Positions 19,322 through 21,153 of a DNA stretch of 64,000 nucleotides are shown here, piece after piece (positions within the stretch are counted from its first letter, which is position 1; every line of letters starts with the position of its first letter). Made by a program: the position numbers and the translations under genes. The stretch lies in NCBI RefSeq assembly GCF_054482525.1, contig NZ_CM137006.1. One strand, written 5' to 3'. A model generated the notes under the pieces. The model did not search any database. It was given only the letters and a program-made list of their open reading frames with translations, and had not been told where the DNA came from.

Positions 19322-20053
19322 ATGAAGATGTTGCGCGATCCGCTGTTCTGGCTCATTGCTTTGTTTGTGGCACTGCTTTTCTGGCTGCCTTACAGCCAGC
19401 CGCTGTTTGCTGCCTTGTTCCCACAACTGCCACGACCCGTTTATCAGCAGGAAAGCTTTGCAGCTCTGGCACTGGCTCATTTCTGGCTGGTGGGAATTTC
19501 GAGTTTGTTTGCGGTGATCATTGGTACTGGTGCCGGAATTATTGTTACTCGCCCGTGGGGCGCGGAATTTCGCCCACTGGTGGAAACTATTGCCGCCGTT
19601 GGGCAGACTTTTCCGCCCGTTGCGGTGCTGGCGATTGCCGTTCCGGTGATCGGCTTTGGTCTGCAACCCGCGATTATCGCCTTGATCCTTTACGGCGTGC
19701 TGCCCGTCCTGCAGGCGACACTTGCCGGGCTGGGAGCGATTGATGTCAGCGTGACAGAAGTTGCGAAAGGTATGGGAATGAGCCGTGGTCAGCGACTGCG
19801 TAAGGTCGAGCTACCGCTGGCGGCTCCGGTGATTCTGGCGGGCGTGCGAACTTCGGTGATTATCAACATTGGTACGGCGACGATCGCCTCAACGGTAGGG
19901 GCCAGCACGCTGGGTACGCCCATCATCATCGGGCTTAGCGGATTTAATACCGCGTATGTGATCCAGGGGGCGTTACTGGTGGCACTGGCGGCGATCATTG
20001 CAGACCGCCTGTTTGAAAGGCTGGTGCAGGCGCTTAGCCAGCACGCAAAATAA
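19322..20053 (+). CDS. yehW: osmoprotectant ABC transporter permease YehW
   Basis: 243-aa polytopic membrane ORF. Confidence 0.88.
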
Positions 20054-20141
20054 AGGTATAACCTGCGAGCATGACGCCACCAATTCCGCCTAACGCCATA
20101 AACAGGAACAGGGCGATGACCCCAATTTTAGCTATGCGCAT
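20034..20141 (-). CDS. yohO: small membrane protein YohO (35 aa)
   Basis: Minus-strand translation [35 protein letters not shown]; 3' end overlaps the yehW 3' end convergently. Confidence 0.7.
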
Positions 20142-20200
20142 AATGCACTCCTTATGTTAACGAAAGGATTGTACAGTAAAGCGCATTTGTTAACGAATGA

Positions 20201-20932
20201 TTAAATGCCGAGTGGGAAAATATCATGGCCTTGTTCCTGCCAACTGGTAAGTTGCTGCTGTTGGGCAGAGGTTCGATTTTCACCGCACCACACCAGCAAT
20301 GTACGGCCTTCGAACAGTTCAGGGCGTAGTTGATTGAGCGAGTGGGCGAGGACATCAATGCGCCATCCTTGTTGACTGGCAATCCAGCCCTCCAGCCACA
20401 GACGGGTGGTATCGTGAATATTCCAGCCAACCACCAGCGCATCTTTACCCTGTTTTTTACGTGCCGAAGCCAGACAAATGGCGATGTAGTTGATCAGTAC
20501 GCCGTCGAGGATCGCCAGCAGCGCCTGGAGAGTCGGTTGTTGGCACTGAAGTCGTCGGCGCAGAGGAATAAACAGATGCGTGGTGAGTGTCTGGGCGGGG
20601 TAATCCTGACCGCGCTCTTTGATCCACGTTCGCAGGCTATGCAGATTGCCGCTTTGCAGGTAAGTCAGTAATGTTTCTTGCTGATCGCGCCAGCCGTTCT
20701 GCACATCAACATTTTCATTACTGAGCAGCATTTTAACTTTGCTGACCTGCACGCCGTTGTCGATCCAGCGTTTGATCTCGCGGATCCGGTCAATATCGGC
20801 ATCGTTGAACAGCCGATGGCCGCCGTCTGTTCGTTGCGGTTTCAGCAATCCGTAACGCCTCTGCCACGCGCGTAACGTGACAGGGTTAATATCACAAAGC
20901 AACGCCACTTCACCAATTGTGTAAAGCGCCAT
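20201..20932 (-). CDS. mlrA: MerR-family transcriptional regulator MlrA (csgD activator)
   Basis: 243-aa ORF with N-terminal MerR-type HTH (MALYTIGEVALLCDINPVTLRAWQRRYGLL). Confidence 0.9.
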   Translation of the reverse strand: MALYTIGEVALLCDINPVTLRAWQRRYGLLKPQRTDGGHRLFNDADIDRIREIKRWIDNGVQVSKVKMLLSNENVDVQNGWRDQQETLLTYLQSGNLHSLRTWIKERGQDYPAQTLTTHLFIPLRRRLQCQQPTLQALLAILDGVLINYIAICLASARKKQGKDALVVGWNIHDTTRLWLEGWIASQQGWRIDVLAHSLNQLRPELFEGRTLLVWCGENRTSAQQQQLTSWQEQGHDIFPLGI

Positions 20933-21153
20933 CGTCTCACCCTTGCTCGCGAGGTCCCGGTTTAACTTTAGACGCAGTTTTGCGAACCAGGTAGTTTTGC
21001 CCGTTTTTTGTGCATCTATAGGGTGATTTTATTTTTGCCAGGCGATTTTGAGTGATCGTACTCACGAATTCTCATTTTTCTGCAAGAGTTCAAAGAAAGT
21101 TAAACGCAGGCAATGTATGTTACGCGTTTTAAAGGGAAGTGTGGTTTGCGGGT

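Follow-up and report, generated by a model that had tools for sequence, protein, structure and literature searches.

The short open reading frame that converges on yehW in Escherichia coli is yohO, a real small-protein gene of the Enterobacteriaceae that is annotated already, and in our judgment it is very probably just packed against its neighbor: the overlap between the two genes would be a tolerated compaction rather than a regulatory device, the yohO mRNA would be the gene's own and would be ended by Rho, and any antisense effect on yehW or yohO would be small. Public annotation and published papers already contain the gene, its overlap and the overlapping transcripts, and only the comparative picture is new here, that is, the conservation of an overlap of 14 to 26 bp throughout the family (78 species), the dominance of the yohO frame within this overlap, and the existence of distant homologs that are free of it. 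As a discovery this matters little. The comparative result is a tidy example of base sharing, in which the frame of the small gene is constrained and the loose tail of the larger protein varies.

We propose the following mechanism. The yohO gene would be transcribed from its own promoter (TACAAT) and translated from a strong ribosome-binding site. Transcription on the yohO strand would then run into yehW, because the genes leave no space between them for a terminator and the region has no intrinsic one, and Rho would stop it once the ribosome has come off at the yohO stop codon. What remains as a stable RNA would be a 177-nt mRNA whose last 69 nt are antisense to the end of yehW's coding sequence. 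Within the overlap, selection would follow the yohO frame, and the cytoplasmic tail of YehW would absorb the changes. Since this tail is loosely constrained, the overlap would be tolerated, and it most likely persists through its low cost.

Genomic context and conservation of the overlap

The window, by which we mean the whole stretch of 64,000 nucleotides analyzed, corresponds at ~20 kb to the E. coli chromosome segment osmF-yehY-yehX-yehW / yohO / mlrA / btsS-btsR. A 1.7-kb query showed 100% identity to E. coli PCN033, and the region is present in 5402 out of 5426 complete E. coli genomes (at least 80% coverage). The product of yehW is the permease of the OsmF-YehYXW glycine betaine ABC transporter, and YohO has a single predicted transmembrane helix. 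The YohO sequence is that of the MG1655 protein, and the neighboring genes are the same too. The sequence-only reading of this DNA had named the two genes yohO and yehW, and both names agree with the RefSeq annotation of PCN033 and MG1655. In MG1655, RefSeq places yohO (b4542, annotated as "UPF0387 family protein YohO") at 2215657..2215764 and yehW (b2128) at 2215745..2216476; MG1655 positions were converted by taking the window coordinate as 2235798 minus the MG1655 coordinate. The features of the locus are given in Table 1.

Table 1. Features of the yohO-yehW locus, in coordinates of the window
Feature	Position	Strand	Details and basis
yohO CDS	20141..20034	minus	35 aa, ATG start; ORF list, RefSeq, NF010225, codon-position entropy
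yohO stop codon TAA	20036..20034	minus	ORF list
yohO Shine-Dalgarno AAGGAG	20148..20153	minus	6 nt before ATG; sequence, ortholog comparison
yohO -10 hexamer TACAAT	20173..20168	minus	6 nt upstream of mapped TSS; in intergenic spacer
yohO TSS	20161	minus	20-nt 5' UTR; Kim et al. 2012
Second minor yohO TSS	20451	minus	within mlrA; 2 reads; Kim 2012
yohO 3' UTR	19985..20033	minus	wholly antisense to yehW codons; mRNA 3' end 19985
Stem-loop GGCGGUC-UGCAAU-GAUCGCC	19990..20009	minus	closes 5 nt before mapped 3' end; fold
Rho-dependent termination region	19803	minus	inside antisense yehW; Adams et al. 2021 supplementary file 2
yehW CDS	19322..20053	plus	243 aa; ORF list, RefSeq
yehW stop codon TAA	20051..20053	plus	sequence
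yohO/yehW CDS overlap	20034..20053	both	20 bp including both stop codons; read from sequence
mlrA CDS	20932..20201	minus	yohO's strand; ORF list, RefSeq

The convergent overlap of 20 bp described in the sequence-only reading is borne out by the ORF list, and the RefSeq annotation of PCN033 and MG1655 has the identical geometry. Here yohO codons 30 (in part) to 35 and the stop codon lie opposite the yehW codons for L-S-Q-H-A-K and the stop codon. Because the stop codons fix both ends of the overlap, it is independent of the choice of start codon for either gene.

One genome per species was scanned with YehW, which yielded 80 other Enterobacteriaceae loci. A YohO ortholog converges on yehW in 79 of them, and in 78 the yohO ORF is found together with an overlap of 14 to 26 bp. 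In one locus (L008), a single-contig assembly, yohO is frameshifted within an A-run, and this loss is probably a sequencing error; in another (L077), yohO is truly absent and yehW is present. The overlap measures 20 bp in 34 sequences (33 species loci and the window), 26 bp in 42, 17 bp in two and 14 bp in one. The 20-bp and 26-bp classes are separated by a 6-bp indel within the shared stretch, which adds two residues to both proteins at once: YohO ends in ...RAG versus ...RGGVG, and YehW in ...HAK versus ...HRREQ.

The two tails differ in how much they vary. Mean column entropy in the 26-bp class was 0.15 for the YohO tail versus 0.79 for that of YehW, and in the 20-bp class the values were 0.50 and 0.99, respectively. 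Furthermore, the conserved and variable columns within the overlap track the yohO reading frame. The register of the two frames is such that the wobble positions of yohO are the second codon positions of yehW, and silent drift in yohO therefore rewrites the YehW tail. The yehW stop codon, TAA or TGA, pairs with TTT or TTC (Phe30) of yohO, and each stop codon falls in partner codons that are free to vary silently. While the dominance of the yohO frame is what we would expect of tolerated compaction, the long conservation of the overlap fits a selected function as well.

Promoter and transcription of yohO

The transcript data all come from MG1655, a different strain from that of the window. Kim et al. 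2012 (supplementary file 2, PMC3415461) mapped a yohO transcription start site (TSS) at NC_000913.2 2213659(+), with a 5' UTR of 20 nt, 2 reads and a flanking sequence that ends ...TACAATCCTTTCG; we placed it on the window from the yohO start codon. The hexamer TACAAT upstream of this site aligns with a TAnAAT that is conserved when 65 sequences of the mlrA-yohO spacer are compared, and a -10-like hexamer recurs upstream of distant yohO homologs in which the upstream gene is other than mlrA. With its start site mapped, yohO has a promoter of its own (TACAAT, start at 20161). A second minor TSS in the same data set (PMC3415461), also with 2 reads, lies 310 nt upstream of the ATG inside mlrA. 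In the supplements of SMRT-Cappable-seq and Cappable-seq, neither these genes nor the expected coordinates were found.

The strongest of the alternatives is that yohO is without a meaningful promoter and closes an mlrA-yohO operon, in which case the antisense RNA would be the tail of the mlrA transcript. We regard this as possible, though it is not what we would expect. The two genes lie on the same strand, yohO being 59 bp downstream of mlrA, and the Term-seq files of Adams 2021 (PMC7815308) contain no 3' end between them, the sole mlrA 3' end listed being internal and near the start of mlrA. The count of just 2 reads at the yohO TSS speaks for the operon as well, and it counts against the reading that we prefer. 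On the other hand, a TSS does map 20 nt before the yohO ATG, after a -10 hexamer that is conserved in 65 sequences, and this hexamer is kept where mlrA is replaced by metG, by a helicase or ferritin-family gene, or by a transposase remnant. The two sources of transcription may both operate in E. coli: since no Term-seq 3' end separates mlrA from yohO, read-through from mlrA into yohO probably contributes to yohO transcription there, without being its sole source.

Several sequence elements near these start sites deserve mention. TTAACA was considered as a -35 element for yohO and rejected, as a mere 14 nt separate it from the -10 hexamer, less than a normal -35 element would have, and as the Citrobacter freundii group deletes 8 bp between the two and keeps the -10. 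Just upstream of the yohO promoter, a TTAAT..TT.ATTAACA motif is conserved across ~65 Enterobacteriaceae sequences, and the inverted repeat within it, TTAAT-N5-ATTAA (~20186..20206, minus), overlaps the mlrA stop codon (20203..20201). The repeat may serve as an operator or as an UP-like element, or it may form the end of a 3' structure of mlrA. The yohO -10 region itself (20168..20175, minus) reads TGTACAAT in Escherichia and in many Citrobacter loci, and most other genera have CCGTATAAT in its place. TGTACAAT is similar to one of the two half-sites that MlrA has at csgD, the full site being quoted as AAAGTTGTACA(12N)TGCACAATTTT (PMC3509220); the other half matches poorly (5/11). The likeness is a weak lead for an action of MlrA on yohO in E. 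coli. A scan of the region for sigma-70-like consensus gave one match versus 1.4 expected, namely ATGACC and CATAAT with a spacing of 17 nt at 20116..20144 (plus), inside yohO and facing mlrA, and it is probably a chance match.

As to mlrA, a TSS with a 177-nt 5' UTR has been mapped to what is window position 21109 (Kim 2012, PMC3415461). The mlrA-internal 3' end, at MG1655 2214904 or window 20894 (Adams 2021, PMC7815308), is 38 nt into the coding sequence, and it coincides with a terminator-like hairpin found in the consensus scan (20928..20906, minus), which reads CGCTTTACACAATTGGTGAAGTG and then GCGTTGCTTT. This end may mark a site of attenuation or of premature termination where mlrA begins.

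The 3' end of the yohO mRNA

The Term-seq study of Adams et al. 2021 (PMC7815308) reports a "primary" yohO 3' end at MG1655 2215813(+), marked as antisense to yehW; at least two of the three yohO entries are this site, and the file spans three growth conditions. The end lies 49 nt beyond the yohO stop codon and 69 nt within yehW (window 19985). Its Term-seq signal is low, which is a further point against the reading that we prefer. From the mapped TSS and the mapped 3' end, the yohO mRNA is ~177 nt long (20161 to 19985), with its last 69 nt (39%) antisense to the final part of the yehW coding sequence.

The mRNA ends without a U-tract. The stem-loop that closes shortly before its end (Table 1) sits in conserved yehW codons; ~80% of its cells are paired across 74 species, and covariation is weak. 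When both strands of the region were folded and compared with shuffles, the z-scores were -1.09 for the yohO strand and -0.74 for the other, neither being better than shuffled. The stem-loop may act as a protective 3' end structure. A scan for terminator consensus gave five sites versus 3.2 expected, none of which was placed as a terminator for yohO or yehW; the site inside yohO (20124..20109) is weak. A bidirectional intrinsic terminator in or near the overlap was also considered, and it was rejected with the scan at chance level and the folds no better than shuffles.

Sensitivity to Rho has been mapped on the same strand. Adams 2021 (PMC7815308) places a Rho region at 2215995(+), antisense to yehW, with the values 5.6 and 9e-16, presumably its Rho score and its significance score. 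Over the 78 nt that follow the yohO stop codon, the ratio of C to G is 1.67, compared with 90th and 95th percentiles of 1.58 and 1.79 in the window. Such C-rich RNA would fit Rho termination, and as a base-composition signal it is suggestive and unexceptional. The plus strand past the yehW stop codon is moderately C-rich (C/G of 1.35 to 1.64), and the data sets consulted gave no 3' end for the yehW mRNA.

Rho-terminated mRNAs can be trimmed back to a protective stem-loop. Dar and Sorek are said to have treated such trimmed ends in 2018. The yohO mRNA resembles them in that its 3' end, without a U-tract, is just past a stem-loop, and in that a bicyclomycin-sensitive region lies downstream and C-rich untranslated RNA follows the yohO stop codon. 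It differs from them in that its stem-loop is made of yehW codons, covaries weakly and folds like shuffles, and in that the trimming is inferred. We suggest that the yohO 3' end arises from Rho-dependent termination and that the RNA may then be trimmed to the stem-loop.

The Enterobacterales locus from which yohO is truly absent (L077:3150-3420) offers a side observation. There, yehW is directly followed by AAAAAACGGGGCCGTAGCCCCGT and then by a convergent gene. AAAAAACGGGGCCGTAGCCCCGT looks like a G+C-rich hairpin after an A-run, which we read as an intrinsic terminator, and this junction may be the appearance of a yehW end without yohO.

Antisense interference between yohO and yehW

The sequence-only reading had expected convergent transcription to give overlapping 3' ends, with a potential for antisense interference. 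The overlap of the transcripts is indeed documented, both by the Term-seq end inside yehW and by ExcludonFinder (Nucleic Acids Res 2025, PMC12288877), which has yohO-yehW among 165 convergent overlaps found in at least half of 58 transcriptomes. The authors of that study propose interference and RNase III cleavage for convergent excludon pairs in general. Because the coding sequences of this pair overlap, expression of both genes is enough for the RNA-seq criterion, and the listing is thus near-automatic. In the literature that we searched, we found no measured effect of yohO on yehW or of the reverse.

It would follow from a working excludon that transcription of yohO (or of mlrA-yohO) and of osmF-yehYXW interfere, such that the induction of one lowers the other, either because polymerases collide or because RNase III cuts a duplex of at least 69 bp. 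We consider this unlikely. It is favored by the documented overlap of the transcripts (Adams 2021, PMC7815308), by the inclusion of the pair in the 'excludome' of E. coli (50% or more of the 58 samples; PMC12288877), which also counts against tolerated compaction, and by the conservation of the overlap throughout the family, no terminator separating yohO and yehW. However, RpoS dependence is common to mlrA and yehW (PMC10654073 supplement), and osmF belongs to the core RpoS genes. The two sides would thus tend to be induced in parallel, and this speaks against a simple either/or switch. Moreover, the coding constraint on yohO alone explains the conservation within the overlap, distant lineages keep yohO without the overlap or without yehW, and both transcripts seem weakly expressed. 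What yohO-yehW shares with convergent excludons is the convergence of two genes with overlapping transcripts, and it is the overlap that places the pair among them; they are marked by mutually exclusive expression and by RNase III processing, whereas mlrA and yehW share RpoS dependence.

We also give little credence to the idea that the overlap itself was selected. In a first form of this idea, the antisense 3' UTR of yohO would set the stability of the osmF-yehYXW mRNA at its distal end, the 49-nt 3' UTR and the shared 20 bp being a built-in antisense RNA that acts via RNase III. In the reverse form, induction of the yeh genes would shut off YohO, the strong RpoS or osmotic induction of the transporter operon stopping its production by polymerase collision. 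Either form, if true, would tie osmoprotectant uptake to a small membrane protein, and regulation of a transporter by the overlap would provide a simple, genetically tractable test case for convergent overlaps in E. coli. A comparison can be drawn with GadY, a cis-antisense RNA over the 3' end of gadX, whose stabilizing effect Opdyke et al. reportedly demonstrated in 2004. Like GadY, the yohO mRNA is an opposite-strand RNA complementary to the 3' end of a neighboring E. coli mRNA; unlike GadY, which is non-coding, its antisense part is the 3' UTR of a protein-coding mRNA. By this analogy, the direction of any antisense effect on yehW would not be predictable.

At the other end of the transporter operon, a TSS for osmF with 33 reads and a 5' UTR of 642 nt has been mapped at NC_000913.2 2218145, that is, window 15675, plus (Kim 2012, PMC3415461). 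A leader of 642 nt is unusually long for the osmF-yehYXW operon.

Distribution of yohO and its relation to the transporter

A profile search of 1.84 billion cluster representatives returned only 39 YohO matches, and the family is therefore narrow. Genomic context was examined for seven distant YohO homologs. Three of them show the same 20-bp overlap with a yehW homolog; in one, a gap of 11 bp separates yohO from yehW, and in another, a 59-aa variant abuts yehW and the overlap is absent. In the remaining two the yeh operon is absent, and yohO converges on a GH3 glycosidase gene or a NUDIX-like gene; yohO is intact in both of these lineages and carries a promoter-like TATAA[CT] and a ribosome-binding site. 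The genes upstream of yohO across homologs include mlrA, a ferritin-family gene, a helicase gene, metG, a transposase remnant and others, and the promoter-like hexamer and the ribosome-binding site stay put while the upstream gene changes. Since the context varies and these signals persist, yohO is an independent unit that needs neither mlrA, nor yehW, nor the overlap. An obligate coupling of YohO to the transporter was rejected because yohO persists in lineages without the yeh operon.

The tight linkage of the two genes could also be taken as a sign of shared function, with YohO as a small accessory subunit or regulator of OsmF-YehYXW. AcrZ, KdpF and MgtS are small membrane-protein modulators, and AcrZ and KdpF act as accessory subunits or regulators of their partners. 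YohO is similar to these three in size, in its single transmembrane helix and in its position beside a transporter operon, and it differs from them in that yohO survives in genomes without the neighboring yeh operon. Among 22 distinct orthologs, M1, K5, M15, A16, G19, G22, V23, M24, L25, G27 and Y28 are invariant, with an invariant core of M-A-x-x-G-x-x-G-V-M-L-x-G-Y, and this glycine-rich core would resemble a helix-packing surface, as an accessory subunit might have. In addition, yohO adjoins yehW in 79 of the 80 species loci and in five of the seven distant homologs, and this adjacency holds even where mlrA has been replaced by other genes. Nonetheless, we find an accessory role very doubtful. 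Two lineages retain an intact yohO without the yeh operon, and yehW occurs without yohO in L077. The yeh operon is reported from well outside the Enterobacteriaceae, for example from Brucella and rhizobia. Furthermore, yohO and yehW are never co-transcribed, owing to their convergent orientation.

Coding evidence for yohO

Several independent lines of evidence show that yohO is a real gene. YohO matches the NCBIfam equivalog model NF010225 "protein YohO" over residues 1-35 of 35 (E = 8.8e-23; 80.1 bits, with a cutoff of 57). A Pfam search with YohO gave no significant match in a model set without PF27791, and in precomputed annotations YohO homologs are labelled with this very family (PF27791, UPF0387_membrane). 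Among 78 distinct orthologous DNA sequences, the mean column entropy of yohO is 0.59, 0.19 and 1.23 at the first, second and third codon positions, respectively, and the summed pN/pS versus E. coli is 0.28. These patterns of substitution point to purifying selection on the YohO protein. The start codon is conserved, and AAGGAG or CAGGAG is retained at the yohO spacing in nearly all orthologous loci.

That yohO is no gene at all, being a chance open frame antisense to the end of yehW, would draw on the fact that short ORFs are common (48 ORFs of at least 20 aa overlap the same 3-kb stretch), but this idea is so improbable as to count as refuted already, given the codon-position pattern, the conserved start and ribosome-binding site, the NF010225 match and the published detection by mass spectrometry. 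The sequence-only reading had staked itself on a yohO transcript or peptide being detectable, and a TSS, a 3' end and a peptide have all been published, the last of these by top-down mass spectrometry (PMC12529367). Finally, the legend of a preprint figure describes ribosome-profiling coverage of the yohO ORF.
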